Shown here: positions 28,683 through 50,618 of the stretch, piece after piece
Layout: each line of letters starts with the position of its first letter
Numbering within the stretch: position 1 is the first letter of the stretch
Assembly (NCBI GenBank): GCA_965237905.1
Contig: OZ250172.1
Location: 2,848,001-2,912,000, forward strand
Direction of reading: 5' to 3'
Source of the DNA: Nitrospinaceae bacterium
Lineage (GTDB): Bacteria > Nitrospinota > Nitrospinia > Nitrospinales > Nitrospinaceae
Length of the DNA stretch: 64,000 bases
Made by a program: the position numbers and the translations under genes
Notes under the pieces: model-generated
Seen by the model: the letters and a program-made list of their open reading frames with translations, nothing else
Told to the model about the DNA's origin: nothing
Databases searched by the model: none

Positions 28683-29042
28683 TTAGCTGATACTACCACT
28701 CGCGTTTATAACGTATGAATTGCCCGAGTCAGCATGAGAGGCGGTACCACTAAAGGCAATTTCTCCACCTGCGGCCACAATAGTGATCTTGCTGGATTGT
28801 ATATATCCATAGGTTGTGGTACCGGCGATGGGCACCGTACAAGCGTTGAAAGAACCTTCATCTGACCAATAGCTTTTACAAGCTAAAAAGACGTTGTGTA
28901 AGTTGGATTTGGTATCGGCATCATAGGCACGACCTTTATATTGTGTATAAACGGGGAGAGCAATAGCTGCCAAAATCCCAATGATAGCTATAACGATTAA
29001 TAGCTCTATGAGAGTAAATCCCTTTTTATTCTCTAATGTCAT
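28683..29042 (-). CDS. Type IVa pilin
   Basis: [25 protein letters not shown] prepilin motif with E5; start MTLENKK at 29042. Confidence 0.95.
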
Positions 29043-29080
29043 TTCAGTCTCCGTTAACGTTGCCCAACCTGTGATAAACA

Positions 29081-29097
29081 AGCAAATGCTGTGCCTA
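29081..29097 (-). promoter_or_regulatory. sigma54 promoter of the pilin gene
   Basis: Minus strand TAGGCAC-AGCAT-TTGCT about 40 bp before the ATG; pilA genes are often RpoN-dependent. Confidence 0.75.
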
Positions 29098-29447
29098 ATT
29101 GGTGTCTAAATAGTTGAAATATATAGAGCCCTAGTGAATGTAACTGTATGAGAGTACTTCAGCATTGAAAAATAGACATCTGCTCGTGTGCCGCGTTGAA
29201 ACTTTATTTTTGAAATAAAGCAGCAAGTTTTTTAGATAGCGCACTGCTTCATTTAAAATCAAAAAAAGGATGATTTTTGATACAAACAGTGTCGCTTATT
29301 TCATACAAAATAATCAGACCAAAAGGTCTGAAGATGGTTCGGTTAGGGGATACACTAGAGGGCAGGAATTAGATAGTGGAGCGCTAAAATGGAAAGTGAT
29401 ACAACAACCGGGGGCGGACCTCACAATTCATCAACGAATGGAAAATT

Positions 29448-29626: not shown

Positions 29627-31468
29627 TTATAAATTAGAATTGTGAGGCAATGCTAAATTTAGATATTTGCCGCGTTCGCCGTACACCAGGCGCTGGTCTT
29701 CCAGGTCTTTTAAGATGGTTTCCAGCTCGGTGGCCTTGATGGGTTGGCCCTGTTCTTTCAGGTGCGCCTGTATCTGATCTAAATTCCGGGGCGCCTCGTT
29801 GCAGAACGCGAAGGCTTTTCCCGCCGCACCTTCCAGCCGCAGTTTCACCGGATGCTCCGCCGACCGCTCGTCGTACACGGTGACAAAATCCATCGACTTG
29901 GTGAACATAAGATAGGGAAGGTTCTCGGATTGGTGTCGTTCTTTCCAATGGCCTACGGTCTGGTGGAGTTCCTCGACGAGGGCCGGGTCGATTTTCAGGT
30001 CCGACTCGAATTCAAAATCGTACGCCACTTTCATGAGGTCGATCGTATCGCCGTCATACACATAAGGGTACGCCACGCCGGGACCGGTGATGCGGATGCC
30101 GTACTGGTCGGGCCGCGTGAAGTAGGGGCTGAACCGTTCCAGCCAGATGTCACCGACAGAGATCGGCGGTTGCAGGTGGGTGAGTGATTTGATCAGGTCG
30201 ATCTGCTGGCGGTAGTCCGCATCCGTCTCCAGCGGGAAGCCGGTCAGTATGCTCCAGGTGACTTCCATGCCGTAATACATTGCCCACTTCAGGCAGAACA
30301 CATTTTGTAAGGGGCGCACGCCCTTGTCCATTTCCTGCAGTTGGTTGGTGCTGAAACTTTCGATGCCGGGCTGGATCACGTTGACACCGCCGTGGGCCAG
30401 ATTCTTGATTTGCGCTTTGGTGAGGTTGCTCTTCACCTCGATGAAAAATTGCAGATCGTAATTGTTCTGCGCGAACTCCCCGAACACGCCGTCGATATAT
30501 TTCATTTCCAGGATGTTGTCCACCAGCCGGAAGCGGTAGCTGTTGTAGCGTTTGGACAGGTCGGCCAGATCGGCGTGGACCTGTTCCATGGACCGCGCCC
30601 GGAACTCCATGGTCGAGGCGTTGAGGCCACAAAAAGTACAGTGATGCTTCTCCCCCCACCAGCAACCCCGCGCGGTTTCGTAGAGGATGATCGGATTCTC
30701 CAGCAGGGGGGAATGCGGATCGATCTCCTTGATCTGTTCCATATAATCATCATAATCCGGCGGGCCGTACTTCTTGAAGTCGGTGAAATTCTCCTGGCTC
30801 TCCTCGAAACGGATGTCACCGTCCACCCGGTGAATCACGCCTTGGGGAATCGGACCGCCCGACTCCAGCGCTTCCATCAATGCCGGGAGAGAGTCCTCCG
30901 CTTCGCCGGAGATAACGTAATCGATCCACTCGAACACGCGGAAATATTCGAGACCCATTTCCGAGTCGAAGTTGGACCCGCCGAACAGGATCTTAATGGA
31001 AGGGTATTTTTCCTTGATCAATTTCGCCAGGGTGACGCTGGCGATGTTCTGATTGAAGGTTGAGGTGAAGCCGACCGCCCCGTATTCCCCCCAATTTACA
31101 GACTCCAGGGCCCACTGGAGAAATTCCGGAACCATTTGGGTTTTGACGTCGTGTAGGAATGACTCCGGCCGGTTGATGGTGTGGCTGATGCTTTGGAGAT
31201 GGGATTTGAAATGCTCCGCGTACTCCTGGTTCTTCCGGGATTCGCCGAACAGCGTGTGGGAGAACAGCCATTCGCCGATCAGAAACCGCTCCTCGCACAA
31301 TTTGTTGTAGACCTCCATATCGATCTGGTGGGCGAAGTGGAGGTTCAGGTAAAAGCTTTTCACCTCGTGGCCGTGCGTTTTCAGCAGGGTCGAAAGCGTC
31401 CCTAACTGAATGGACGGATACACATGAAAGCCGAACGGCATGTTGACTAATGCGACTTTAGAAGGCAT
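29627..31468 (-). CDS. Cobalamin-dependent radical SAM RiPP-maturation methyltransferase (TIGR03975/PoyC-like)
   Basis: N-terminal B12-binding domain (GFTSTFNQN, FGGSN, SGEAE); ETARGCWWGEKHHCTFCGLN CX7CX2C; QPGIESFS; ERFSP. Confidence 0.9.
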   Translation of the reverse strand: MPSKVALVNMPFGFHVYPSIQLGTLSTLLKTHGHEVKSFYLNLHFAHQIDMEVYNKLCEERFLIGEWLFSHTLFGESRKNQEYAEHFKSHLQSISHTINRPESFLHDVKTQMVPEFLQWALESVNWGEYGAVGFTSTFNQNIASVTLAKLIKEKYPSIKILFGGSNFDSEMGLEYFRVFEWIDYVISGEAEDSLPALMEALESGGPIPQGVIHRVDGDIRFEESQENFTDFKKYGPPDYDDYMEQIKEIDPHSPLLENPIILYETARGCWWGEKHHCTFCGLNASTMEFRARSMEQVHADLADLSKRYNSYRFRLVDNILEMKYIDGVFGEFAQNNYDLQFFIEVKSNLTKAQIKNLAHGGVNVIQPGIESFSTNQLQEMDKGVRPLQNVFCLKWAMYYGMEVTWSILTGFPLETDADYRQQIDLIKSLTHLQPPISVGDIWLERFSPYFTRPDQYGIRITGPGVAYPYVYDGDTIDLMKVAYDFEFESDLKIDPALVEELHQTVGHWKERHQSENLPYLMFTKSMDFVTVYDERSAEHPVKLRLEGAAGKAFAFCNEAPRNLDQIQAHLKEQGQPIKATELETILKDLEDQRLVYGERGKYLNLALPHNSNL

Positions 31469-34565: not shown

Positions 34566-35042
34566 CTAATTAAGATTTTCCGAATACTGGGCAGGAACCG
34601 AGAACATATTAGAAGGACTCTCATAAAACGTCTCGTTGCCATTGACCCCGTCCTCGTTCGCGTCTTTATACATCAAATCCCAGGTGCCGTCTTCGTTGAC
34701 GTCAAACGCGTAAAATAAGGCTTTCTCGGAAATCACGTAGATCTGATTGGCCGGTCCGTAATTGACATAGAAAACCGGTGCACCTTTGTAAAGACCAGGC
34801 AATTGCTTCAGCGGTTCGCTGGTCAAATAGGTTTTGACAACAAAATGGACGGTATGGTAATCGGCCCGGCCGTTGTGGTCGAGGTCGAAGCTGATATAGA
34901 GTAGTCCATTGCCTTTTAAGTTCCAGGCAGTTTTGTTTTCCAGCGGGGGATCAACGAGAGGAAGATTAGGGAATCCCATTCCCAGACTCGGGAGCAGTAA
35001 AAGAATTGCCAGCAGGACGGCTTTGGTGATCAGGTGTTTCAT
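34566..35042 (-). CDS. Secreted hypothetical protein with DxDxDG-type Ca-binding loops
   Basis: Signal peptide; DLDHNGRAD, DVNEDGTWD, DANEDG; AGAGGAGG RBS; start 35042 or 35051. Confidence 0.75.
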   Translation of the reverse strand: MKHLITKAVLLAILLLLPSLGMGFPNLPLVDPPLENKTAWNLKGNGLLYISFDLDHNGRADYHTVHFVVKTYLTSEPLKQLPGLYKGAPVFYVNYGPANQIYVISEKALFYAFDVNEDGTWDLMYKDANEDGVNGNETFYESPSNMFSVPAQYSENLN

Positions 35043-35189
35043 GACGAACACCTCCTCTTTTTTTGCGGCAATCAGTCCAAGAAGATTTGCCGCTTATCCG
35101 GACTCGCTGTTGCCAGCCCCTCGGTCCGGATTCAATGAAGAATTCAGTCTCATTCGAGTTGAATTCAAATGTACCCTCAACCTGATACA

Positions 35190-38585: not shown

Positions 38586-38758
38586 GCTCTATGTGGGTTT
38601 GGCGCCATTAAAAAATGATCTTCTATCCGGGATTGCCAAAAAAAATAAATTAGCTTACCCTTATGGAGCAAGAAGTCACACTGTTTTTTGCTCCATGCTT
38701 TTTGAGTTCACTTGGCCTGACGAAATATTGTAGTTGTCTTTTTCGGAATAATCAAATT

Positions 38759-40195
38759 ATGGCGAAACCTTTAATATTTGTGGTGGACGACGAACCTGAA
38801 TCCGGCGGCCTGCTCGCCTATTATCTGGAGAAAGCCGGTTATGAGGTGGCGCAGTTTTCCAATGGGCCGGACTGTCTGAAGGCGTTGGACCGCAACCCCA
38901 GCCTCGTTTGTCTGGATATGCAAATGCCGGAGATGGACGGATTGGAGGTTCTCAAACGGATCAAAGCCCAGAACTCCAAATTGGGAGCCATCATGGTTAC
39001 CTCGAATAATGAGGTCGACACGGCAGTTCAGGCGTTGAAACTAGGCGCGGCAGACTACATCATCAAACCCGCGGATCGGGAAAGATTCCTGACGACGGTG
39101 GAGGATACTTTGGATCAGACTCAGTTGGTGGGCCAGATCCGCAATATGGAAAAGGACATGGAAAGCGCTTTCGCCTACAAAAATATTGTGGGAGAGAGCC
39201 AGGCCATCAAGAAGGTGTTCACCCAAATTGAGCAGGTCAAAGACAGCAACGTCAATGTGTATATCAATGGCGAAAGCGGGACGGGTAAGGAACTGGTGGC
39301 GCGCGCCATCCATTTCAGCGGACCGGAGGAGAACCGGCCATTTATCGATATCAATTGTAGCGCGCTGGCCGAAGGACTGTTGGAAACCGAAATGTTTGGA
39401 CATGAAAAGGGGGCGTTTACCGGAGCCATAGGGACCCACCGCGGCAAGCTGGAGTTGGCCGACGGCGGAACTCTGTTTTTCGATGAAATAGCCGACATGA
39501 GCCTCAAGCTTCAGGTCAAGCTTCTCAGGTTTCTGGAGGAGAAAAGTTTTGAAAGGGTGGGGGGCACCAAAAAAATCAAGGTCAACGTAAGAGTGGTTTC
39601 AGCGACCAATAAGGATTTGCAGAAAGAAGTCGAAAAAGGAAATTTTCGCGAGGATTTATATTACCGCCTGGTGGTTTTTACCATTCATGTGCCGCCGCTG
39701 AGAGAAAGAAAGAACGATATTCCGCTTTTGTGTGGCTACCTCCTGAATAAATTTAAAGATGAGCTGAATAAAGAGATTTCCCATATTTCACCCGGCGCCA
39801 TGGATATTCTCAATCATTACCGTTGGCCCGGAAACGTCCGGCAACTGCAGAATGTGATATTGCAATCGATGTTGATGTCGCAGACCAGTACGATTGAAAT
39901 CGAGAATCTTCCCCAGGAAATCCAGAAAGCAGGGGAGGAGGGGGCTACTGCCTCGGTCAAAGGAGAACCTGCTTTGTCTGAGGAAGTGAGAGCATCAGAT
40001 GGAATGGAAACGTCGGAAAACGATCAGGCCGGTTCCAATAGGATTTCCCTGGATGAAGGTGAAAAACAGACTCTCATGAGCGCTCTTAAAATGACCAACT
40101 GGAATATCTCCGAAGCTTCCAACCTTTTAGGTATTAGTCGAACTACCTTTTACCGGAAACTCAAAAAGCATGGGTTGAGCCAGACCCGGGGCTAA
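38759..40195 (+). CDS. sigma54-dependent NtrC-family response regulator (REC-AAA+-Fis HTH)
   Basis: GESGTGKE, intact GAFTGA, FFDEI, WPGNVRQL, LGISRTTFYRKLKK; likely start 38759. Confidence 0.97.
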   Translation: MAKPLIFVVDDEPESGGLLAYYLEKAGYEVAQFSNGPDCLKALDRNPSLVCLDMQMPEMDGLEVLKRIKAQNSKLGAIMVTSNNEVDTAVQALKLGAADYIIKPADRERFLTTVEDTLDQTQLVGQIRNMEKDMESAFAYKNIVGESQAIKKVFTQIEQVKDSNVNVYINGESGTGKELVARAIHFSGPEENRPFIDINCSALAEGLLETEMFGHEKGAFTGAIGTHRGKLELADGGTLFFDEIADMSLKLQVKLLRFLEEKSFERVGGTKKIKVNVRVVSATNKDLQKEVEKGNFREDLYYRLVVFTIHVPPLRERKNDIPLLCGYLLNKFKDELNKEISHISPGAMDILNHYRWPGNVRQLQNVILQSMLMSQTSTIEIENLPQEIQKAGEEGATASVKGEPALSEEVRASDGMETSENDQAGSNRISLDEGEKQTLMSALKMTNWNISEASNLLGISRTTFYRKLKKHGLSQTRG

Positions 40196-40305
40196 CTGCT
40201 GTCAGAACCCCGGTTTCCAGGGATTAGGGAATCTCCCCAAGACCAACTATCACCTGATCCTTGGTCCGGTTTGAATCCTGAGTTAACCCCTAACGGGTAA
40301 ATCCC

Positions 40306-40341
40306 AAAAAAAAACGCCCGACGGTCAAACCGTCAGGCGTT
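40306..40341 (-). terminator. Intrinsic terminator, unit 1
   Basis: AACGCCCGACGGT-CAA-ACCGTCAGGCGTT stem with A-run (U-tract on minus strand). Confidence 0.85.
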
Positions 40342-40359
40342 GGAAGTGCATTGTGCAGA

Positions 40360-40632
40360 TTAGAAACAGTTAGGATACTCACCTATTAAGCCTAAGTCCG
40401 CGCATGTAGGATCCGTATCGGGCTCTTCCACAACCTTCCATTCGGCCTTACCACTCTCAAGGTTAGCCTTTTCCAACCGCATCTCTTCACCATGCGTCAT
40501 GTCATCATCAGCCGTGGTAACCTTCGCGGCTTTTGCAGCTTTGTCAGGACCTGCCAAAGCTGGAGAACCCAGAACCAAACTTACGATAGCTACCATTGCA
40601 ATTTGGAACATCCAAAATTTAGCTTTTTTCAT
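40360..40632 (-). CDS. Secreted small protein, array member 1 (GPDKA subtype)
   Basis: Signal peptide ending PALA; C-terminus PTCADLGLIGEYPNCF; AGAGAGGT RBS. Confidence 0.9.
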   Translation of the reverse strand: MKKAKFWMFQIAMVAIVSLVLGSPALAGPDKAAKAAKVTTADDDMTHGEEMRLEKANLESGKAEWKVVEEPDTDPTCADLGLIGEYPNCF

Positions 40633-40707
40633 CTTTGTTACCTCTCTCTTAATTAATGACTATAGATCTATATATACCCCAATAAGAGTATTAACTGCTA
40701 TTAATAT

Positions 40708-40724
40708 AGCAGGATGCATGCCAA
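40708..40724 (-). promoter_or_regulatory. sigma54 promoter, unit 1
   Basis: Minus strand TTGGCAT-GCATC-CTGCT with correct GG/GC spacing, conserved in all five units. Confidence 0.8.
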
Positions 40725-41229
40725 CGGATCCCCTAAATATTCAATTTTATTCTACTAATTGAATTTAAACGGATTATTCAGGCATTTTTATTGTTCATAT
40801 GGAATCCTAGTATAGTTTTGAACATATCTAAGGGGATTTTCCGCCAAATTTGGGCTCTGGTTGGACATTATTTGGATATTTTCATGTAGATAATTGATTT
40901 TATTACTTTTAGATCAATAATAGGAATTATCCAAAATTGCTCACTTTAACTCTTTATAATCAAAAGGCTTGTAATTTGGACGGTCAAATGGGTGGGGAGG
41001 GCTCCAGGTAAAAGAGTTGCGGCCTTCGCAGCCACTCCAAAGGGAACACAGGGGGTTTTACTACCATGCAGGGTTTGAACAATGAGCAGAGAGACGGTAA
41101 AAGGGGGTGCCCTATAAGTCTCCCCCAGGCGGGCTCCAAATAACATTTCTCTGGATGAAGGTAAGAAGTAGCCTTCTCTTGAGCGCTCTAAAAATGACCC
41201 GCTGGAATATCCTCTAATGGGTGAATCCC

Positions 41230-41265
41230 AAAAAAAAACGCCTAACGGCTCAGCCGTCAGGCGTT
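41230..41265 (-). terminator. Intrinsic terminator, unit 2
   Basis: AACGCCTAACGGC-TCA-GCCGTCAGGCGTT plus A-run. Confidence 0.85.
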
Positions 41266-41283
41266 AAAAGTACATTGTGCAGA

Positions 41284-41592
41284 TTAGAAACAATGGGGCC
41301 AAGTACCCAATAGTCCTAAGTCCGCGCATGTAGGATCTGGATCGGGATCAGGATCAGGCTCATCTGCGTGATGTTCAGCGTTGTGCTCGGCCAGTTGTTG
41401 GTCGTGCTGCGCTTGCCAGTGGTCAAGTTTTTCGGGGTGCATGGCAATTTTTTTGTCGAACATTTTTTGATGCTGTTCGTGCCATTTCTCGTCATCAAAT
41501 CCATGACCCTCTGCAAAAACCGGGGATCCAAAAACCAAACTTATGATGGCTACCATTGCGATTTGAGCTAACCAGAATTTAACGTTTTTCAT
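41284..41592 (-). CDS. Secreted small protein, array member 2 (His-rich subtype)
   Basis: Signal peptide ending PVFA; His-rich core; PD-repeat linker; PTCADLGLLGTWPHCF. Confidence 0.9.
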   Translation of the reverse strand: MKNVKFWLAQIAMVAIISLVFGSPVFAEGHGFDDEKWHEQHQKMFDKKIAMHPEKLDHWQAQHDQQLAEHNAEHHADEPDPDPDPDPTCADLGLLGTWPHCF

Positions 41593-41667
41593 TTTTTTTA
41601 CCTCACCTCTTATTAATAACTATAGATTCACACATACCCCGATAGAAGTATTGCTTGCCCTTGATAT

Positions 41668-41684
41668 AGCAGGATACATGCCAA
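41668..41684 (-). promoter_or_regulatory. sigma54 promoter, unit 2
   Basis: Minus strand TTGGCAT-GTATC-CTGCT. Confidence 0.8.
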
Positions 41685-42128
41685 GCAAGTACCTAAATGG
41701 GCGATTTTAATCTGCTAATTGAATTGAAGGGGATTATTCAAGGGGTTTTTATTCACATGGAATTTTAATGTAGTTTTTCAGAATATCGGGAACGATATTT
41801 TGGCTAAATTTGTACTCTAATTGGTTTGTTATTTAGACACCCTAATATAAGTGGTTGGCTTGATTTGACTTGGTTGATTGTTAAAGAGGGTACAAAGTTA
41901 TTCACTTTAGCCCTTTATAATCAAAAGCTTGTAATTTGGACAGTTAAATGGGTGAGATGGTTCAAGAAAAATAGAATTGAGGGGTTCTCAGTCACTCGGG
42001 AGAATAAAGGATGCCCTGGCTTGCCATGTTCCAGGAGGCGGGTTCAATAGCATTTCTTTGGGTGAAGGTGAGAAGCAGACTCAACCTGAACGCTTTTAGA
42101 ATGACCACTGAAAAGAAAGGATAACCCC

Positions 42129-42164
42129 AAAAAAAAACACCTGACGGCTCAGCCGTCAGGCGTT
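42129..42164 (-). terminator. Intrinsic terminator, unit 3
   Basis: AACACCTGACGGC-TCA-GCCGTCAGGCGTT plus A-run. Confidence 0.85.
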
Positions 42165-42182
42165 AGAAGTGCATTGTGCTCA

Positions 42183-42479
42183 TTAAAAACAATTGGGCCA
42201 AGTACCCATTAAGTCGAAGTCCTCGCATGTAGGATCCGGATTGGGATCATCTGGGTGAAATTCAGCATTGTGCTCGGCAAGTTTGCTGTCGAATACTTCT
42301 TGCCAGTGGGCAGATTTTTCGGGTTGACCAGTAACTTTTTTGTCTAACCATGCATCAAGATTCTCGTGCCATTTTGTGTCATCGAAGTTTTCATCGTCTG
42401 CGAAAACCGGGGACCCAAAGGCTAAACTTACGATGGCTACCATTGCAATTTGAGCTAACCAGAATTTAGCTTTTTTCAT
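42183..42479 (-). CDS. Secreted small protein, array member 3 (FDDxxWH subtype)
   Basis: Signal peptide ending PVFA; PTCEDFDLMGTWPNCF. Confidence 0.9.
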   Translation of the reverse strand: MKKAKFWLAQIAMVAIVSLAFGSPVFADDENFDDTKWHENLDAWLDKKVTGQPEKSAHWQEVFDSKLAEHNAEFHPDDPNPDPTCEDFDLMGTWPNCF

Positions 42480-42554
42480 TTTTTTACCTCTCTTCTCTCT
42501 TATGAATGACTATGGATCTATATATACCCCAAGTGGCGTATATATATTAAGTAA

Positions 42555-42571
42555 AGCAGGATGCATGCCAA
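42555..42571 (-). promoter_or_regulatory. sigma54 promoter, unit 3
   Basis: Minus strand TTGGCAT-GCATC-CTGCT. Confidence 0.8.
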
Positions 42572-43013
42572 TTGAGCACCTGAATGGGCGATTTTAATCT
42601 GGTAATTGAATTTAAAAGGATTATTCAGGCACTCTTTTATCACATGGAATTCCAATGTAGCTTTGAGATATATAGGAGGGGAGCTACTGCCAAACTTGGG
42701 CTCTATTTGGTTGATTATTCAGACACTCTCCGGTAAGTAATTAGTTTTATTAGCTTTAGCTGAATAATGGAAATTGCACAAAATCGCTCACTTTAGCCCT
42801 TTATAATCAAAAGACTTAAAATTTGGGCGGTTAAATGGGTGGGGTGGCTAAAGGAAAAACAGGGTTGTGGGGTTTTCAGTCACCCGTGAGAGTGAAAGAT
42901 GCCCTGGCTTGCCCTAGTCCCAGGCGGGTTCAATAGCATTTTTTTGGGTGAAGGTGAGAAGCAGACTCAACCTGAACGCTTTTAGAATGACCACTGAAGA
43001 GAAAGGATAACCC

Positions 43014-43049
43014 AAAAAAAAACACCTGACGGCTCAGCCGTCAGGTGTT
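43014..43049 (-). terminator. Intrinsic terminator, unit 4
   Basis: AACACCTGACGGC-TCA-GCCGTCAGGTGTT perfect stem plus A-run. Confidence 0.88.
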
Positions 43050-43067
43050 GGGATTACATTTTACAGA

Positions 43068-43319
43068 TTAGAAACAGTGGGGATAATCACCCACTAAGCC
43101 AAAGTCCTCGCATGTAGGCTCCGGATCGGGAACATCCGCTTGCTTCCATTTGGCATTACCTTCACCAAGATTAGCCTTTTCCAATCGCATCTCCTCACCA
43201 ACGGAAACCTTCGCGGCTTTTTCGGCTTTGTCAGGGCCTGCGAATACAGGGGACCCAAAAGCCAAGCTTACGACAGCTACCATTATAATTTGAACCAACC
43301 AAAAATTAATTTTCTTCAT
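43068..43319 (-). CDS. Secreted small protein, array member 4 (GPDKA subtype)
   Basis: Signal peptide ending PVFA; PTCEDFGLVGDYPHCF. Confidence 0.9.
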   Translation of the reverse strand: MKKINFWLVQIIMVAVVSLAFGSPVFAGPDKAEKAAKVSVGEEMRLEKANLGEGNAKWKQADVPDPEPTCEDFGLVGDYPHCF

Positions 43320-43412
43320 ATTTTTACCTCTCTCTTATTATAGATCTATATATACCCTTTTAGGGATATTATATTATATACCCCAAATAGAGTATCTATA
43401 TGCCATAAATAA

Positions 43413-43429
43413 AGCAGGATGCATGCCAA
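43413..43429 (-). promoter_or_regulatory. sigma54 promoter, unit 4
   Basis: Minus strand TTGGCAT-GCATC-CTGCT. Confidence 0.8.
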
Positions 43430-43853
43430 CCTGGGTCACGAATAGGTTACATTAGTCAACTATTTGAATTTTAAAGGGTTATCCAGGTATTTTCTTATTC
43501 ATATGGGATTCCAGTATAGCTTTGGAGTGCATCAGAAGGGATTTTTTGCCAAATTTGGGTACTGGTTGGACATTATTTAGACATCCTCCTATAAGTAGCT
43601 AATTTTATTAAGTTTAACTTATTGATAGGAATTGCAAAAATTGTTCACTTTGGCTCCTTATAATCAAAAGACTTAAAGTTTGGGCGCTAAATTTGGGTAA
43701 GGATGGCTAAGGTAAAACAGGGTTGTTGTCTTCGAAGTGACTCGAAGTCCCAGACGGGTTCCAGTAGTATTTCGCTGGATGAAGGCGAGAAGCAGACTCT
43801 CCGGAGGTTTTTAAAATGACCCACTGTGGAATATCCCCTAACGAGCAAATCCC

Positions 43854-43891
43854 AAAAAAAAACGCCTGACGGCTCTCAGCCGTCAGGCGTT
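43854..43891 (-). terminator. Intrinsic terminator, unit 5
   Basis: AACGCCTGACGGCT-CTC-AGCCGTCAGGCGTT perfect stem plus A-run. Confidence 0.88.
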
Positions 43892-43909
43892 GGAAGTGCA
43901 TTGTGCGGA

Positions 43910-44281
43910 TTAGAAACAATTGGGGTAAGTACCGATTAAGTCAAAGTCCGCGCATGTAAGAACCGGATCGGAAACGGTTGCATCTACATGGTATTTAGCG
44001 TTGTGCTTTTCCTTTTTTGCTTCGTGCTTTGCTTCCCATTTCGAAAATTTTTCCAATTCCTTAGTTTCCTTTTTCATCAGTTTATCGCCATCGTACTTCG
44101 CACGAATTTTTTCAAGCTTTGCTTTGTGCTTATCTTCTTTTTTATCCTTTTTTACTTGCCACTTATCGTGCCATGCGTTGTCATCGAAGTTATGATCTGC
44201 CAATACGGGAGAACCCCCCATAACCAGGCCTACGATAGCTACCATTGCAATTTGAAGCATCCAAAATTTAGCTTTTTTCAT
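43910..44281 (-). CDS. Secreted small protein, array member 5 (FDDxxWH subtype with Lys/Glu-rich insertion)
   Basis: Signal peptide ending PVLA; K/E-rich helix; LTCADFDLIGTYPNCF. Confidence 0.9.
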   Translation of the reverse strand: MKKAKFWMLQIAMVAIVGLVMGGSPVLADHNFDDNAWHDKWQVKKDKKEDKHKAKLEKIRAKYDGDKLMKKETKELEKFSKWEAKHEAKKEKHNAKYHVDATVSDPVLTCADFDLIGTYPNCF

Positions 44282-44352
44282 CTTGTCACCTCTCTTGTGA
44301 ATGACTATAGATCTATATATACCCCTAAAAGGGTATTAATTATCATAAATGA

Positions 44353-44369
44353 AGCAGGATGCATGCCAA
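44353..44369 (-). promoter_or_regulatory. sigma54 promoter, unit 5
   Basis: Minus strand TTGGCAT-GCATC-CTGCT. Confidence 0.8.
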
Positions 44370-44698
44370 TTGAGTAGCTAAATGATCAATTTTAATAGGG
44401 TATCTGAATTTAAAGAGATTATTCGGACATTTTTTTGTTCACATGGAGTTCTAGTGGACACATCGGAGGGGATTTTCTGCCATATTTAAGCTTGGTTGAT
44501 TGATTATTTAGACAGCCTCATGTAGGCAATTGGTTTTATTATTTTTAACTCAGTGATGGGAATTGCAAAAATTGTTCACTTTGGCTCCTTATAATCAAAA
44601 GGCCTGTAATTTGGGAGGGTAAATTTGGGTAAGGATGCTTGAGTTAAAACAGAGTCGTGGTCTTCGCAGTCACTCAAAGGGAACATAGGGGTGTACGG

Positions 44699-46705
44699 CT
44701 ATATCATGGGCAGAGAGACGGTAAAGGAGGTGCCTTTTCCACATTGGGAATCCACTTCGATGATTCCTCCGTGAGTTTGAACGATGCCATGGGTGACCCA
44801 TAGTCCCAGGCCGGTTCCCTCCGCCTTGGATTTGGTGGTAAAAAAGGGCTCAAAGATATTCTTTCGGATTTTTTCTGTCATTCCGATTCCATTATCCTGA
44901 ACCGTGAAATATAAATGGGAGTTCTGATGGTGCGTGCTCAAGCTGATTTCTCCCCCCGTTTCGGGAATGGCATCCATCGCATTTTGAAACAGATTCAGGG
45001 CGACTTGCCTGATCTGGTCCGGAAACGCCGATACTTCCGGAAGCACGTCGCTGTAATGGGTTTTGAGGTGGATGTTTCGGTCCGCCAATTCCTTCTGAGC
45101 CAATAAAACAATTTCCTCCAGGACGTGATTGATCTGTACCGGTTCTTTATTTTCCCGGGTGGGACTGAAGAAGTTATTGAGCCGGCGAGTCAGTTTAGCG
45201 ATCCGGTCGGTTTCGCTGATGGCCATGTCTATAAAACGTTCATCCGCTTCCTTCAGAGGAACACACATTTTAGTTCGTTCCAGAACGTTACGGATACCAA
45301 AGAGAGGATTGTTGATTTCATGGGCAATCGAGGCAGAGAGTTTGCCGATAGAAGACAGCTTTTCCGCATGTAACAGTTGTTCCTGATAGATTTTCAGTTT
45401 CTCCTCGGCCTGTTTTCTCTCCGTTATATCTTGAACAATTCCTCTTAATTTCTGTGGCTTTCCTTGTTCGTTATAGAAAGTTTTGCATTCTTGATGGACT
45501 GTTCGAAGGGTTCCATCGGGCAACACGATTCGATGATCTATGCTGTAGTTCTCTTTATTTTCCAGGATTTCTTTGTTGGTGTTATCGACGAATTCGCGGT
45601 CTTCCGGATGAACCGTATTTAAAAATGCCTGGTAGGAGGCATTGAATTCTTTGGGGCGAAGGCCGAAGATCCGGTAGACTTCATCGGACCACCATAATTC
45701 GTCTGTTTCAATATCGTAAACCCAGTTCCCCATTTTCCCGATTCTCTGTGCGATGGAAAGTTCGCGTTCGCTGTGTCTTAATGCTTCCTCTACTGTTTTG
45801 CGTTCGGTGATGTCCTGGACAATTCCGCGGGCTTTCAGGGGGTTGTCCAGGTCATCCAGAAAGACTCTCGATTCTTCATAAATGATTCTCTCCGTGTCGT
45901 CGGGTAATGGAATCCGGTATTCAACCTGGTGTCCTCTACCGGTGCGGAAGGATTCCTGATGAGACGCATCCACTCTCTGGCGATCGTCGGGATGGATTAA
46001 TTTTAGAAAAGCCTTATAGGTTCCTTGAAATGTTTGTGGACTGGTTTCGAAAATCTGATGCGTTTCATTGGACATTCTGATTTCATGGGTGCTCATGTTA
46101 TAAACCCAGCTGCCCAACCGCGCTATTTTCTGGGCCAGCGCCATATCCCATTCGCTTTGAATGAGTTCCTTTTCGACCATTTTTTGCTGGGTGATATCTC
46201 TCCCGGACAATAGAATTCCCTTGGTCGAACCTTCCGTGTTCTTTAAAGCGAGACCTTCCCATTCGATGAGGTGTTCTTCCTCTTTTTTATTGATGGTGGG
46301 TATGACGATGTAACCGATAGAGTCTTCCTCTCCGGAAAACAATTTTTGGAGTGATTGCAAGGCGCTCGTCCGCATGGAAGGGGTCACAAAACGTTCGAAC
46401 CAGTTTTCTCCGATTATTTTTTTATGAGGATATCCTAAAGCTTTGCAACCGGCTTTGTTGATGGTTTGGATTTTATGATCTTTCCCCAGGCTGATAATAA
46501 TATCGTTAGAGAGATGAATGATGTTTTCAATGTTGGTGCCTGTGAAATCCCGGGTAATTATCTTCAGAGGAGAAATGATCTGCGAGGAGATTTCAGCCGT
46601 TGTTTTACTTTTCTTTGCGGGTTCCGAGGAATTGTTTTTGGACGGGGAATGAGTGGCGGTGCCACGTTTGGACGGTTTTTGTCTTTTGGTAGCAGGCTTT
46701 TTCAT
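44699..46705 (-). CDS. Cytoplasmic multi-PAS histidine kinase (NtrB-like)
   Basis: Three PAS/PAC domains, AHEINNPL, NAMDA, DNGIG, FEPFFTTK, GTGLGL; start 46705 or 46729. Confidence 0.95.
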   Translation of the reverse strand: MKKPATKRQKPSKRGTATHSPSKNNSSEPAKKSKTTAEISSQIISPLKIITRDFTGTNIENIIHLSNDIIISLGKDHKIQTINKAGCKALGYPHKKIIGENWFERFVTPSMRTSALQSLQKLFSGEEDSIGYIVIPTINKKEEEHLIEWEGLALKNTEGSTKGILLSGRDITQQKMVEKELIQSEWDMALAQKIARLGSWVYNMSTHEIRMSNETHQIFETSPQTFQGTYKAFLKLIHPDDRQRVDASHQESFRTGRGHQVEYRIPLPDDTERIIYEESRVFLDDLDNPLKARGIVQDITERKTVEEALRHSERELSIAQRIGKMGNWVYDIETDELWWSDEVYRIFGLRPKEFNASYQAFLNTVHPEDREFVDNTNKEILENKENYSIDHRIVLPDGTLRTVHQECKTFYNEQGKPQKLRGIVQDITERKQAEEKLKIYQEQLLHAEKLSSIGKLSASIAHEINNPLFGIRNVLERTKMCVPLKEADERFIDMAISETDRIAKLTRRLNNFFSPTRENKEPVQINHVLEEIVLLAQKELADRNIHLKTHYSDVLPEVSAFPDQIRQVALNLFQNAMDAIPETGGEISLSTHHQNSHLYFTVQDNGIGMTEKIRKNIFEPFFTTKSKAEGTGLGLWVTHGIVQTHGGIIEVDSQCGKGTSFTVSLPMI

Positions 46706-46867
46706 AGAGGTGGAAACCGGTTTTACCAAAAGGGTTGAAGCGGGCCATTAGGTTTCCGCTCAAACACCTGATTTTAAGAATTTTAGGGCTTTTTATTATT
46801 ATGCCTCTCTTATCCCGTTCGGACAATAATTTTTAGCGAACGAATGTCTCTCAAGAGTGTATATCCC

Positions 46868-47686
46868 TCATTTCTTTAACAAAAAACTGAATCCCAGGAT
46901 TGCTATAAATGTGATACCGAAAGCACACACCAGGGTTGAACCTGTCGGCAAATCAAAAATAAAGGAAAGACCCAATCCGGCCCAACTGACCAGGATAGCC
47001 ATGAGAGTCCCTACCCAGAGTTGTTTTCCCAGGGAATCATACAATTGGATGGCACAGGCGGCGGGGATGATCAGCAGAGTGAAAATGAGGAAAATACCCG
47101 CTGTTTGAATGCACGCCACAATAGCCAGCCCCAACATCAGATAAAAAACGAAATCCCAAAGCCCTCTTTTTTGGGTATAAGGCTCCGGCGAGTTCGCCTG
47201 ATCCGTGCATTGGATAAACGGTTTTCGGATCGCCCACAGGAAACCTGCGAGGATGGTAAAGGCTGTCAAGAGTTGCAGGACCCCTCCCCATGAAATCCAT
47301 AAAATGGATCCATTCAAAGTATGTTGGATATGTTCGGCCGCACGGGGAGAGCGGTCGGCAATGATCACGGCCAATGAGGCGGCGACCACGTAAACGATGC
47401 CAATCACCCCTTCCTGAGATATCCGGGGTGCCATAAATCGTACAAGGGTGAAGAATGAGGCTCCTATGAAAACAAACCCAATGGAAACCAGAATTGTTCC
47501 GAAAGAATGCTCCTCCAGGTTCAGGGCGAAAGCCACCGTGGTGCCCAGTGCGGCCAGTTGCGCCATGGACAGATCGATAAAAACTATGCCGCGTTTCAGA
47601 ACGTGGATGCCGAAGTAGGTGAAGATGAATGACATCACCATGCATCCCAGCGCCGGAGCGGCCATGAATGTTATAAAATCACTCAT
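46868..47686 (-). CDS. Metal ABC transporter permease (ZnuB/MntB family)
   Basis: GIHVLKRGIVFIDLSMAQLAALG; EGVIG; LIIPA; multiple TM helices; start MSDF at 47686. Confidence 0.88.
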   Translation of the reverse strand: MSDFITFMAAPALGCMVMSFIFTYFGIHVLKRGIVFIDLSMAQLAALGTTVAFALNLEEHSFGTILVSIGFVFIGASFFTLVRFMAPRISQEGVIGIVYVVAASLAVIIADRSPRAAEHIQHTLNGSILWISWGGVLQLLTAFTILAGFLWAIRKPFIQCTDQANSPEPYTQKRGLWDFVFYLMLGLAIVACIQTAGIFLIFTLLIIPAACAIQLYDSLGKQLWVGTLMAILVSWAGLGLSFIFDLPTGSTLVCAFGITFIAILGFSFLLKK

Positions 47687-48629
47687 TCTCTGAAAGTGCC
47701 TCAGTGATTTGATTGACGAGGGTATCAAACAGCCCAATGGTATCGTGGGCTTCGGGTACGCCACCGACGCCCGGAGGCAAGGTCAGGACCCGTGCGCCGG
47801 TTTTGCCGGCCAGCAGATTGGAGAATTTATCCTGATAGTAATTGGCTTGCAGAATCAGGCTGACATTTTTCTGCCTCATCCTTTGCGCCAGGCCGGACAG
47901 ATGGCTGGGGGAGGGTTGAATGCCGGGTTTCGGTTCCACCGTCCCAATGCGGGTCAATTGGAAGTACCGGAGAAAATAGCTCCAGGTGCGGTGATACGTC
48001 ACCACCGGAGTGTTGGCAAACGGCTCCATTTGCTTTTTCCATTCATTTAATTTTAATTCATATTTTTTCAAAAACTGTTTTCTGTTGGCTTTGATCTGTG
48101 ACGAGTGCGCCGGCAACATTTTGGAAAGATGATCGGCGATTAAATAGACAATCGGTTTTATATTGCCCGGATCCAATGTGTAATGCGGGTTGCCGAAGGG
48201 ATGCACGTCACCCATGGAACGGTCCAGTTTGCCCTGCGGAATTTCGATCGGGTCGATCGCCAAAGAGAGATCGAGATGCCCCGGTTTGCCCAACTGAATG
48301 TCCGGATTGCGCGCGCCTCGCAGTAATAGGGGAAGCCAACCCACCTCCAGTTCCAATCCTTGATAGATAAGGAGGTTGGCTTGGTGCATCTTCAGCATCA
48401 GGCTCGGTTTGGCCTGCACAAAATGCGTGTCCTGATAACCCCGCGTCAGGCTTTCCACTTCGACCAGGTCCTGGCCCACCGCTTGGACGAGCGAGGCAAT
48501 ATCCTGCGTGGTGGTGACAACTTTGAGTTGGGCGTTGGCTTCGCCCTTGAAGGTCAGGAGTAACAGCAGGGCTGAGAGCCAGAGGAACGTTGGCTTTATT
48601 TTCTGATTCCAAAATTCCATCGTCATCAA
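47679..48629 (-). CDS. Metal ABC transporter substrate-binding protein (ZnuA family)
   Basis: VVTT...QDTHF, GDVHPFGNPHY, TYH, EPKPGIQPSPSHL. Confidence 0.93.
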   Translation of the reverse strand: MMTMEFWNQKIKPTFLWLSALLLLLTFKGEANAQLKVVTTTQDIASLVQAVGQDLVEVESLTRGYQDTHFVQAKPSLMLKMHQANLLIYQGLELEVGWLPLLLRGARNPDIQLGKPGHLDLSLAIDPIEIPQGKLDRSMGDVHPFGNPHYTLDPGNIKPIVYLIADHLSKMLPAHSSQIKANRKQFLKKYELKLNEWKKQMEPFANTPVVTYHRTWSYFLRYFQLTRIGTVEPKPGIQPSPSHLSGLAQRMRQKNVSLILQANYYQDKFSNLLAGKTGARVLTLPPGVGGVPEAHDTIGLFDTLVNQITEALSENE

Positions 48630-49924
48630 TACCGGTGCGCGGGATGCGATCCCAGCGAGAAGTTCAATTGAAGCAGGACCTGATGCTCGTTGGAGATGTC
48701 TTCGTCAATATAATTGTATTGGAGCCGAATGGCTGAAAATTCGCTGGGCACATATCCCAGCAATGCGGTGTATCTTTGTTGATCGTTGGCGGCATCCGGC
48801 TGGTGGAATCCGAAATAACCATAGCGGGCCTGCACCCACCATTGCTCGGCGAATTGATATTGAACATAGGAATACATGCCGCCTTTGTTGTCGTCGGGAT
48901 TGTCCAGTCCCGATAAGGCATTGACCCCGGTTTCTTTCCATGCCCCGATATATTCCGACTGCCAGACCAATGTTTTGTAGCGGGCCTGCCGGGCCGGTTT
49001 CCATTTCAGGGTGAGGTTGGCCCCGGCGACTTGGGTGGTTCGGTTGCGATTTCCCAAAGCGGATCCCGTGCCGTTTCTACCCGTTGAAAAAGATCCTCCA
49101 ACTTCCAGGGTGGTGTCCTCATTCAGGTCCCACAGATTGCGCGAATGAAAGATGTAGGCGAAGTCATCATTGAGCGGCGCGTCGAACAGATTGACATTGT
49201 CGCCTTCCACAAATTCAAAAATCCATTCCGAATACCAGGGCAGGGGCATCAGGTAACTGAAGCCTGCGCCAACTTCCAAGAATGCTTCCTTGCCAAAAAT
49301 TTCTTTGTTGACCAACGGGACATCAATAAAAGGAAATTGATGAGTGTGCAGAAGATTGTGCTTTCCCAAATGGGTGTAGAACTGGCCGGCTCTTAAGGCG
49401 AGGCGGTCGAACAGTAACAGGTCGACAAAGCTTTCCTCAATTTCCACTTCGTCATCTTCAAACGAAATACGAAAATTGGCGCGGAGGTAGGTATCCACAT
49501 TGGCGGTAAACTGCACCTCCATTTCCTGGATGTCCAGCCCCGTTTTGACGTCGGCGTTGGGATTATTGTTTTCAATCGAACGATAGGTACCGAGAAACAG
49601 TCCATTGACACTGATCGCCGGGTTGAATGTCCGACTGAGACCCGTGGAAGTAGCAAACGCCGAATCGGCCGAGCTTCCCGTGACGCGGGGCATGCGCGGA
49701 AAAGGAACCGAAACCGGCCCCTCTTTCTTCATGGGATCGGAAGCGGATTCGGACTCCGGCGCTGTGGGTACGCTCTGCCCCTTCTCTATCCTTTGTATTC
49801 TTCTTTCCAGGCGCTTGATCTGCTCCTGGAGCTCATAAATGTCCTCTTTGGCCTCCTGCGCGCAGGTATGGGTTGCGCTTGCAAGGCATACCAAAATGAA
49901 AAGGACAATGCCAGACCATTTCAT
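48626..49924 (-). CDS. Outer-membrane beta-barrel associated with metal uptake
   Basis: Signal peptide, coiled coil, FNPAISVNG, HNLLHTHQFPFID, PSEFSAIRLQY, C-terminal LGSHPAHRY. Confidence 0.82.
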   Translation of the reverse strand: MKWSGIVLFILVCLASATHTCAQEAKEDIYELQEQIKRLERRIQRIEKGQSVPTAPESESASDPMKKEGPVSVPFPRMPRVTGSSADSAFATSTGLSRTFNPAISVNGLFLGTYRSIENNNPNADVKTGLDIQEMEVQFTANVDTYLRANFRISFEDDEVEIEESFVDLLLFDRLALRAGQFYTHLGKHNLLHTHQFPFIDVPLVNKEIFGKEAFLEVGAGFSYLMPLPWYSEWIFEFVEGDNVNLFDAPLNDDFAYIFHSRNLWDLNEDTTLEVGGSFSTGRNGTGSALGNRNRTTQVAGANLTLKWKPARQARYKTLVWQSEYIGAWKETGVNALSGLDNPDDNKGGMYSYVQYQFAEQWWVQARYGYFGFHQPDAANDQQRYTALLGYVPSEFSAIRLQYNYIDEDISNEHQVLLQLNFSLGSHPAHRY

Positions 49925-50078
49925 GGGTCCTCCAGACAAAATTGGTTTCAATATTTAATTGAAGTTATTTGAATTTGTGAATTCGAGTAACGAAATTCAC
50001 AGCAAATTTAATATCTTCCTCTGGTTATTGAAAATGTGGGTACCATTAGCCAGGGGAAAATTTTGAAATTCAAATGAG

Positions 50079-50381
50079 TTAACTGGAAAGAGAGGGAGGA
50101 CTGCGTCCAAAATAGGGCGAAATGATTTTTTGAAAGGTGATGCGTTCCGATACAGGCGGAGAGACGACCGTCAGCCATGATTCGACGGTCAAGTCCGGCA
50201 CATCCATATCGAGGCTGACTGAAGTTTGGGTCCAGTGGCAGGGGGCGCAATCTTCGTCGGTCGTAAAATGATCGAACTCGTGGTCGTGCAGGAAGGTAGA
50301 AAACGCAGCCATAATGCTGAAGCTGATTAATATGAAACCAGCGAAAGTGAAGCGGCGCTTTTTATTTTTAAACAAACTCAT
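50079..50381 (-). CDS. DUF2946/CruR-like leader protein (TM, His-rich, CxxC, RSPP)
   Basis: N-terminal TM helix, HDHEFDH, CAPCH, C-terminal GRSPP; first gene of the metal-uptake operon. Confidence 0.75.
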   Translation of the reverse strand: MSLFKNKKRRFTFAGFILISFSIMAAFSTFLHDHEFDHFTTDEDCAPCHWTQTSVSLDMDVPDLTVESWLTVVSPPVSERITFQKIISPYFGRSPPSLSS

Positions 50382-50618
50382 ATCAGGTTTAATGAGAAAC
50401 AGGTCGGATGGCTGTCTGGAGAATCCCAAACCGCCGTTAATATCAGCTTTAGATGGTATGAGATTATTTAGGATTTGTAAATGTAGAAGATTTTTTGGAA
50501 GAAGGAGAAGAGGGTAGGAGCCTCCTCCCTAAAAGGGAGGAGGATTGACTGGCTTATCCCAGAGGGGAGGTGAAGATCCGTCCTTGGCCAGGGGCTTCAG
50601 AAGAGGAGGTAAATAGAT

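Follow-up and report, generated by a model that had tools for sequence, protein, structure and literature searches.

The Nitrospinaceae are major marine nitrite oxidisers whose envelope biology is, to our knowledge, little known, and a stretch of 64,000 nucleotides from a genome likely of this family (contig OZ250172.1, positions 2,848,001 to 2,912,000; hereafter the window, in whose numbering coordinates are given) raises the question of what is done by an array of five short tandem genes whose products have near-identical predicted signal peptides, the same C-terminal motif and different middles. Judged by sequence, the family that these genes represent is real, undescribed in the sources searched, limited to one genus and modular, with a clear regulatory frame. 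We hold its architecture and its sigma-54 dependence to be very probable; that the products are binding proteins of two modules, switched by sigma-54 and exported, which act at the envelope or surface, is the reading we prefer, tentatively and at somewhat short of even confidence.

The original prediction, made from the letters of the window, of five paralogous open reading frames (ORFs) of 83-123 amino acids (aa) was borne out, all on the minus strand:

40360..40632, minus strand: family gene 1 (P0001, 90 aa), with signal, GEEMR-class core, linker and Cys-pair cap; AlphaFold2 (AF2) model of low confidence (predicted local distance difference test, pLDDT, 59)
41284..41592, minus strand: family gene 2 (P0002, 102 aa), with signal, His-bearing core predicted as a helical hairpin (KWH class), (PD)n linker and cap
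42183..42479, minus strand: family gene 3 (P0003, 98 aa), with KWH core and cap
43068..43319, minus strand: family gene 4 (P0004, 83 aa), with GEEMR core and cap
43910..44281, minus strand: family gene 5 (P0005, 123 aa), with a long, Lys-rich KWH core and cap

An assembly artefact behind the array is unlikely, because contigs from two runs on a single sample tile it without joints and without one mismatched letter, the one gap of 43 nt (42973-43015) falling within a near-identical repeat; this is the likely source sample, and the tiling tests the assembly, not occurrence elsewhere. No further family copies were found elsewhere in the 3.09-Mb single-contig genome. A candidate sixth, decayed copy at 29354-29425 (plus strand), a GEEMR-core-like peptide in non-coding DNA, is not claimed (tblastn E 0.25), and its DNA alignments were not convincing (1/10 barely above the shuffle maximum, 90.5 against 88.5). 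An Rfam search returned a tRNA as the sole match.

Alignment of the five proteins upheld the predicted common signal peptide and Pro/Asp linker, and in the mature proteins (56-95 residues) a core particular to its class is followed by an acidic spacer rich in Pro and by a cap. The 27-residue signal is conserved at K5 (88/90), W7 (87/90), Q10 (88/90), G22 (87/90) and A27 (87/90), counts over 90 sequences that are partly biased because the searches used the signal; the RRxF twin-arginine pattern occurs in 0/98 signals, and a lipobox Cys or twin-arginine in 0/5 of the array signals. Hydropathy maxima of the five mature parts (-0.03 to 1.22) gave no membrane segment. Ratios of non-synonymous to synonymous substitution (dN/dS) were below 1 in the signal (0.28-0.29) and in the cap (0.47), in agreement with the purifying selection expected at the conserved ends.

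The cores had been described as divergent and charged; they are indeed variable and swapped, but they form several conserved classes and are not merely divergent charged stretches. For the KWH core a helical hairpin is predicted (AF2 pLDDT 87-96, with 84-87 for the cap), and three near-invariant histidines, its best-conserved residues (His38 in 26/28 sequences, His70 in 28/28 and His75 in 27/28), would by register be placed at the hairpin's open end. The GEEMR core gave no confident fold and has G, R, A, N, A and W invariant in 18 sequences; there are also Asn/Ala/Gly-rich classes. Foldseek with the predicted fold found no match at E 0.001, and the best VIA score (Z 5.3) was to generic hairpins.

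At the C-terminus, TCxD[LF]xLxGx[YW]PxCF is present in all five proteins, as first noted, but is not fixed across relatives: the exact 13-residue terminal form occurs in 5/119 mature sequences and the looser C..Gx[YWF]PxC in 16/119, and about six Cys-paired cap types were distinguished. The Cys count is even in 107/112 and the last Cys lies at most five residues from the end in 103, pointing to terminal disulfides in the caps; 7/119 sequences, some of them truncated, are without Cys. Four caps carry a DxxGxG stretch that we take to be EF-loop-like. Caps proved as exchangeable as cores, with 30 of the 48 cells of a core-by-cap table filled (98 sequences), and a cap type is common to different cores here, in loci L040 and L044 and pairwise in genome G008, not in L048. 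As far as these alignments go, what is fixed across the family is the signal peptide and the regulatory frame only.

That frame is repeated at every gene. The proposal of separate transcription units, each with its own promoter, ribosome-binding site (RBS) and terminator, rather than an operon, held for all five: each has a GAGAGGT-type RBS, a sigma-54-type -24/-12 motif and an intrinsic-terminator-like stem-loop with a T-run:

40709..40723, minus strand: sigma-54-type -24/-12 motif, gene 1 (this and the next four by pattern match)
41669..41683, minus strand: sigma-54-type -24/-12 motif, gene 2
42556..42570, minus strand: sigma-54-type -24/-12 motif, gene 3
43414..43428, minus strand: sigma-54-type -24/-12 motif, gene 4
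44354..44368, minus strand: sigma-54-type -24/-12 motif, gene 5
40313..40341, minus strand: terminator-like stem-loop and T-run, gene 1
41237..41265, minus strand: terminator-like stem-loop and T-run, gene 2
42136..42164, minus strand: terminator-like stem-loop and T-run, gene 3
43021..43049, minus strand: terminator-like stem-loop and T-run, gene 4
43861..43891, minus strand: terminator-like stem-loop and T-run, gene 5
40844..40942, minus strand: boxes A, B and C (candidate activator sites; shown for gene 1), at about -219, -155 and -134 from the -24 motif

The sequence TGGCAT[G]YATCCTGC sits 72-94 nt 5' of the ATG in each of the five genes, and TGGCA[CT]N6TGC was found within 120 nt upstream of 26/26 family genes examined (five here and 21 from fetched loci, with two truncated genes excluded). 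Genome-wide this pattern has 58 sites in 3.09 Mb (~0.001 per 100 nt of one strand), including sites ahead of two pilin-like ORFs and of one further ORF, presumably FlgB-like; rpoN is encoded in the genome. Two related ORFs of 72-73 aa (MFYxVRI...) in AT-rich DNA, at G000:C1:2059016 and 2422087 (plus strand), each lie behind a sigma-54-type motif. Near the predicted transcript start a short inverted repeat, TAC...GGGGTA (40670-40692 and equivalents), is conserved and is duplicated in the gene 4 leader; as a hairpin it has a weak consensus (-2.6 kcal/mol; two-sided change in 2/5 pairs).

Boxes B and C are present in 5/5 units and box A in 2/5 at four mismatches or fewer, all at fixed distances. 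A profile of the upstream region matched strongly at the five array copies only, in a search of the genome, and the regulon that it defines therefore looks confined to the array. The B+C pair recurs at 29102-29131, ahead of a lone type IV pilin-like gene (28683-29081) adjoining a tRNA; this is one of four genome matches to the B+C pattern, and no sigma-54 motif was found downstream of it. Reversed, box A resembles the NtrC site given in PMC4987338, and sigma-54 is linked generally to envelope or exterior functions in PMC3162934.

Two regulatory genes flank the array:

38663..40195, plus strand: NtrC-type sigma-54 activator (REC-AAA-HTH, GAFTGA), transcribed towards the array and likely to regulate it
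44699..46729, minus strand: three-PAS histidine kinase directly upstream of the array; likely partner of the activator

A linked PAS kinase recurred in 12/12 loci with a visible non-family upstream gene. For the activator the expected linkage stood in part, with a convergent downstream gene in 7/10 long-enough loci but not in the remaining three, which are taken up below; several loci in both counts are close kin. Close matches to the activator occur in 7/10 same-genus genomes, the best matches in five other-genus genomes being 35-48% identical, and orthologue-level matches are confined to the genus, the same range as the family. No membrane segment was predicted in the flanking kinase by a hydrophobicity check; it is therefore likely cytoplasmic and likely senses an internal cue. 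We infer from synteny that this kinase and activator control the array.

Beyond the kinase, 46868-50429 (minus strand) encodes a metal ABC permease, a ZnuA-like binding protein, a 441-aa protein with no Pfam match and an outer-membrane-protein-like end, and a small His/Cys protein; the gene group is swapped for a TonB receptor in L030. A 161-aa secreted protein (34566-35051, minus strand), with DxDxDG-like loops, no family model and up to four relatives per genome, was dropped as a dedicated partner, its relatives being found in 39/41 genomes and so not family-specific. At 29627-31468 (minus strand) lies a radical SAM C-methyltransferase of the type acting on ribosomally synthesised and post-translationally modified peptides (RiPPs; TIGR03975, 619 bits), with no obvious precursor adjoining; in L031 the TIGR03975 gene also stands beside cytochrome c and typA genes.

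How the array arose can be read from its spacers. The repeated unit (about 40025-44734) extends beyond the stretch first noted and takes in a decayed fragment of the activator gene:

41126..41211, plus strand: scar 1, decayed activator 3' part (source 40025-40108), score 102 against a shuffle maximum of 30
42036..42113, plus strand: scar 2, score 87 against 30
42921..42996, plus strand: scar 3, score 83 against 31
43751..43841, plus strand: scar 4, score 106 against 37

Scars 2 and 3 are 97% identical over 101 nt. An activator relic joined to the kinase-side flank is found in 4/4 internal spacers here (0/5 in G008, L044 and L048), and the array therefore grew by tandem duplication; judging by its remnants, the duplicated unit had one end within the activator gene and the other within the kinase gene, and contained one family gene. 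Synonymous divergence is 0.43-0.60 among copies and 0.39-0.63 to the nearest relatives, and each of the two core classes is also met in a lineage about 1.07-1.08 away (GEEMR in L044, KWH in G001). Either cores would have been swapped into a duplicated frame, or frames homogenised around old cores; since the core classes are older than the duplications, recombination is implied under either scenario. Informative sites cluster by the split that they support (30 adjacent matches against 16.3 expected, p 0.0004), also without the core (20 against 11.1, p 0.004) and without core and scar (16 against 9.9, p 0.03).

Three protein searches and DNA scans gathered 138 proteins (near-duplicates included), among them 119 different mature sequences that bear the family signal. 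Whole-genome searches placed the family in 6/10 same-genus genomes, the four without it being 70-89% complete, and in 0/50 genomes from 18 other genera; a broader profile gave the same result within the Nitrospinaceae. When 185,579 species genomes were scanned with a strict pattern, 5 loci came up, four labelled Nitrospinaceae or Nitrospina; the fifth (L054, 2.3 kb, labelled Gammaproteobacteria) is likely a mis-binned contig. The family's assignment to this lineage depends on such labels. Copy number is 1 in G001, G002 and G005, at least 2 in L040, L044, L047 and L048, 4 in G008 and 5 here.

As in the first reading, in which the family was not recognised, none of the five proteins matched Pfam, NCBIfam or PHROGs above cut-off, and Pfam on 32 relatives gave compositional matches only. 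The best ESM Atlas scores (0.79 and 0.77) were both to unnamed entries; a longer-protein search with profile A2 found none among 7999 scored, which is weak evidence, and of 124 pattern matches in viral contigs 0 were confirmed. A PDB sequence match to cytochrome b562 (E 0.0014) rested on its signal peptide and was rejected, and a match at G010:C24 (L039), to a thioredoxin-like protein similar in the signal only, was dropped. No account of the family was found in the literature searched (subscription papers and supplements lying outside its scope), nor by term searches in PMC13768755 and PMC11995701; the latter is the biofilm study from which the carrier metagenome-assembled genome L050 comes.

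No other protein in this genome carries the cap (genome profile search). The cap motif, CxxxGxxGx[YW]PxC, recurs in 2-11 copies in 19 larger proteins (293-2294 aa) of other microbes, most of them with a signal-like N-terminus and some with DUF11, PKD or FecR domains (for example P0051, P0054, P0069 and P0071, with DUF11 in P0062 and P0079). The repeat is often preceded by PT, is acidic in some proteins and Lys/Arg-rich in the DUF11 proteins, has no Pfam or NCBIfam model, and turns up in several unrelated architectures.

At one related locus the frame has taken on further genes. A stand-alone C39 peptidase (FapD-like) and a FapF/FilC-like barrel stand between the kinase and the family genes (L048:5170-7560), and next comes P0106, in which the family signal precedes a short cargo with a Cys pair and a GG leader; the locus has possibly captured a small export unit of the Fap/Fil kind, whose peptidase and barrel score far below NCBIfam cut-offs (92.6 against 330 and 50.7 against 700 bits). 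Elsewhere in the present genome, unlinked to the array, are two PF13557 barrels and one weak C39; CsgG-like matches were set aside, being located in an unrelated cluster. Outside the usual locus, L036:298-5044 holds a family gene that has a sigma-54 motif to itself and stands ahead of large secreted proteins, of which one carries DUF11/DUF7507.

In the explanation that we prefer, the cytoplasmic PAS kinase would phosphorylate the NtrC-type activator, which would act from the conserved upstream boxes on all copies at once through sigma-54. The products would be exported by Sec and cleaved after the PxxA motif, and oxidation of the Cys pair would give a small disulfide-closed cap. Cap and core, joined by the acidic Pro-rich spacer, may each bind something, whether matrix, surface, envelope protein or perhaps, in the His class, a metal. 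Tandem duplication, in part documented by the scars, would expand the locus, and recombination would reassort cores and caps into lineage-specific sets. Variable binding at the envelope or surface is favoured because both modules carry conserved, exposed-looking residues and the locus is hypervariable, because repeats like the caps are seen in large secreted proteins, and because the L048 frame carries GG-leader cargo beside FapD-/FapF-like genes.

The alternative with most to recommend it, which we nonetheless consider unlikely, is that the proteins are soluble periplasmic metal buffers or stress chaperones of the ZraP kind, controlled by a sigma-54 two-component system, the cap only stabilising or protecting the C-terminus. 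Sec export alone stops at the periplasm, three of the five genes are of the KWH class with its near-invariant histidines at the predicted open end, a ZnuA/ABC-3 operon is found on the far side of the kinase at this locus as in L031, L033 and L048, and ZraP itself is a sigma-54-dependent periplasmic zinc chaperone adjoining its regulators (PMC4987338). The GEEMR, KAN/NAS and RQGxQ classes, however, mostly have 0-2 His, and since single-copy loci carry any core class, metal binding is not a common property; moreover, no ZraP/Spy/CpxP family profile matched in Pfam or NCBIfam, and a buffer has no need of strain-variable caps. We give less credence still to released-peptide precursors, in which a cap cut off at the linker would be a strain-specific signal or antimicrobial and the core a pro-region. 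The caps are compact, aromatic and Cys-closed, common within several arrays and different between genomes, and P0106 has its GG leader beside a C39 peptidase; yet that leader is found in 1/119 sequences and in none of the array's five, no protease, modifying enzyme, exporter, immunity gene or membrane receptor is conserved next to the family, 7/119 sequences are without Cys, and the invariant residues of the cores are not what a disposable pro-region would be expected to show. The radical SAM gene lies 9 kb off with housekeeping genes, including typA, between. The signal and RiPP readings of the original prediction thus found little support, given the even Cys counts, the single GG leader and a kinase without a predicted membrane segment.

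Two further explanations are weaker. A recombination-prone locus of little consequence, with the export frame kept and the payload near neutral, would account for a copy number of 1-5, for widely varying length and composition and for some core pairs with dN/dS near 0.8-1.0; it is very improbable in view of five intact copies among non-coding scars that hold indels, of the promoter found at every gene examined, of core residues invariant across species and of the low dN/dS of the signal. We attach the least weight of all to a cap that, in the manner of PEP-CTERM, sorts the protein by its C-terminus and so anchors a variable cargo in the envelope: there are sigma-54 promoters, a Pro-rich PEP/PDP stretch before the tail and two exosortases in the genome, but the PEP-CTERM pattern occurs in 0/119 sequences, the mature proteins lack a membrane segment, no other protein of the genome bears the cap, and caps differ between close relatives.

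Several observations weigh against binding at the envelope or surface under the control of the flanking pair. No dedicated outer-membrane route is evident, the genome having one secretin only, among pilus-type genes, so that the periplasm is the default destination, and the L048 peptidase and barrel found no match in 21 family genomes with the queries used. L036, L043 and L045 lack a downstream activator, about ten other sigma-54 activators are encoded in the genome, and the co-distribution of family and regulator amounts to one lineage event. Core dN/dS in six pairs, crudely estimated, was about 0.14-1.0 and never clearly above 1. The core and cap classes were set by our own regular expressions, with six family members missed by the filter. 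As for the cap repeats, their E-values are inflated by the summing of repeats, a unit taken singly scores 15-32 bits in 4/7 proteins tested, at most 25 in one and below 10 in two, and the proteins were picked with the same profile, so that convergence is possible.

A bolder extension of the preferred reading, which we regard as doubtful, is a combinatorial library of mini-proteins in which ancient cores and surface-repeat-derived disulfide caps would be shuffled among lineages in a fixed sigma-54/export frame, yielding strain-specific recognition badges, displayed or released, for kin adhesion or for evasion of phages or predators. More broadly, the family defines an unnamed 13-residue, presumably disulfide-closed repeat present in many large secreted proteins, and the locus shows on a small scale how modules are shuffled within a family of bacterial genes; being genus-specific and hypervariable, and having a single pair of regulators for its five short targets, it is directly testable.

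Among known systems, families of the conotoxin or polymorphic-toxin type combine a conserved export signal with a variable mature part, duplication and exchange, whereas here two modules vary independently and each gene is its own sigma-54 unit; no co-transcribed immunity gene (each gene having its own terminator) and no toxin domain was detected. Large secreted repeat proteins have the 13-residue Cys-closed motif in tandem copies, and the present family has a single terminal copy. With PEP-CTERM substrates the likeness ends at exosortases in the genome (two PF09721 matches, unlinked to the array), the VPEP-like motif, transmembrane helix and basic tail being absent (0/119, no model match); the regulators fell below the PrsR/PrsK-type cut-offs (TIGR02915, 389 bits against 502.6; TIGR02916, 108 against 300). 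The Fap system (PMC5557850) is approached by the L048 locus only, with its FapD-like peptidase, FapF-like barrel and GG-leader cargo; at the present locus FapD and FapF are absent, and the five proteins have no NQQxN amyloid repeats, as that motif is described in the same paper. By these features, the family lies outside PEP-CTERM, RiPP, Fap and polymorphic toxin systems as they are defined. ZraP with ZraS/ZraR likewise pairs a small exported protein and a sigma-54 promoter with an adjoining kinase and enhancer-binding response regulator (PMC4987338), and differs in that there is no sequence match and that the array has a predicted cytoplasmic kinase, multicopy hypervariable genes and Cys caps. 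Bd0108 of the Bdellovibrio hit locus (PMC4267844), compared by its described features, is also a protein of ~100 aa with a Sec signal, largely disordered, with a short conserved binding stretch and a Cys pair; it has CXXC and a neighbouring RHS partner, whereas here there are a terminal C-x11-C, adjoining regulators and several core classes. By analogy, then, the family stands apart from the defining features of both and seems most like ZraP in its regulatory layout, or like Bd0108 in being small, exported and partly disordered.

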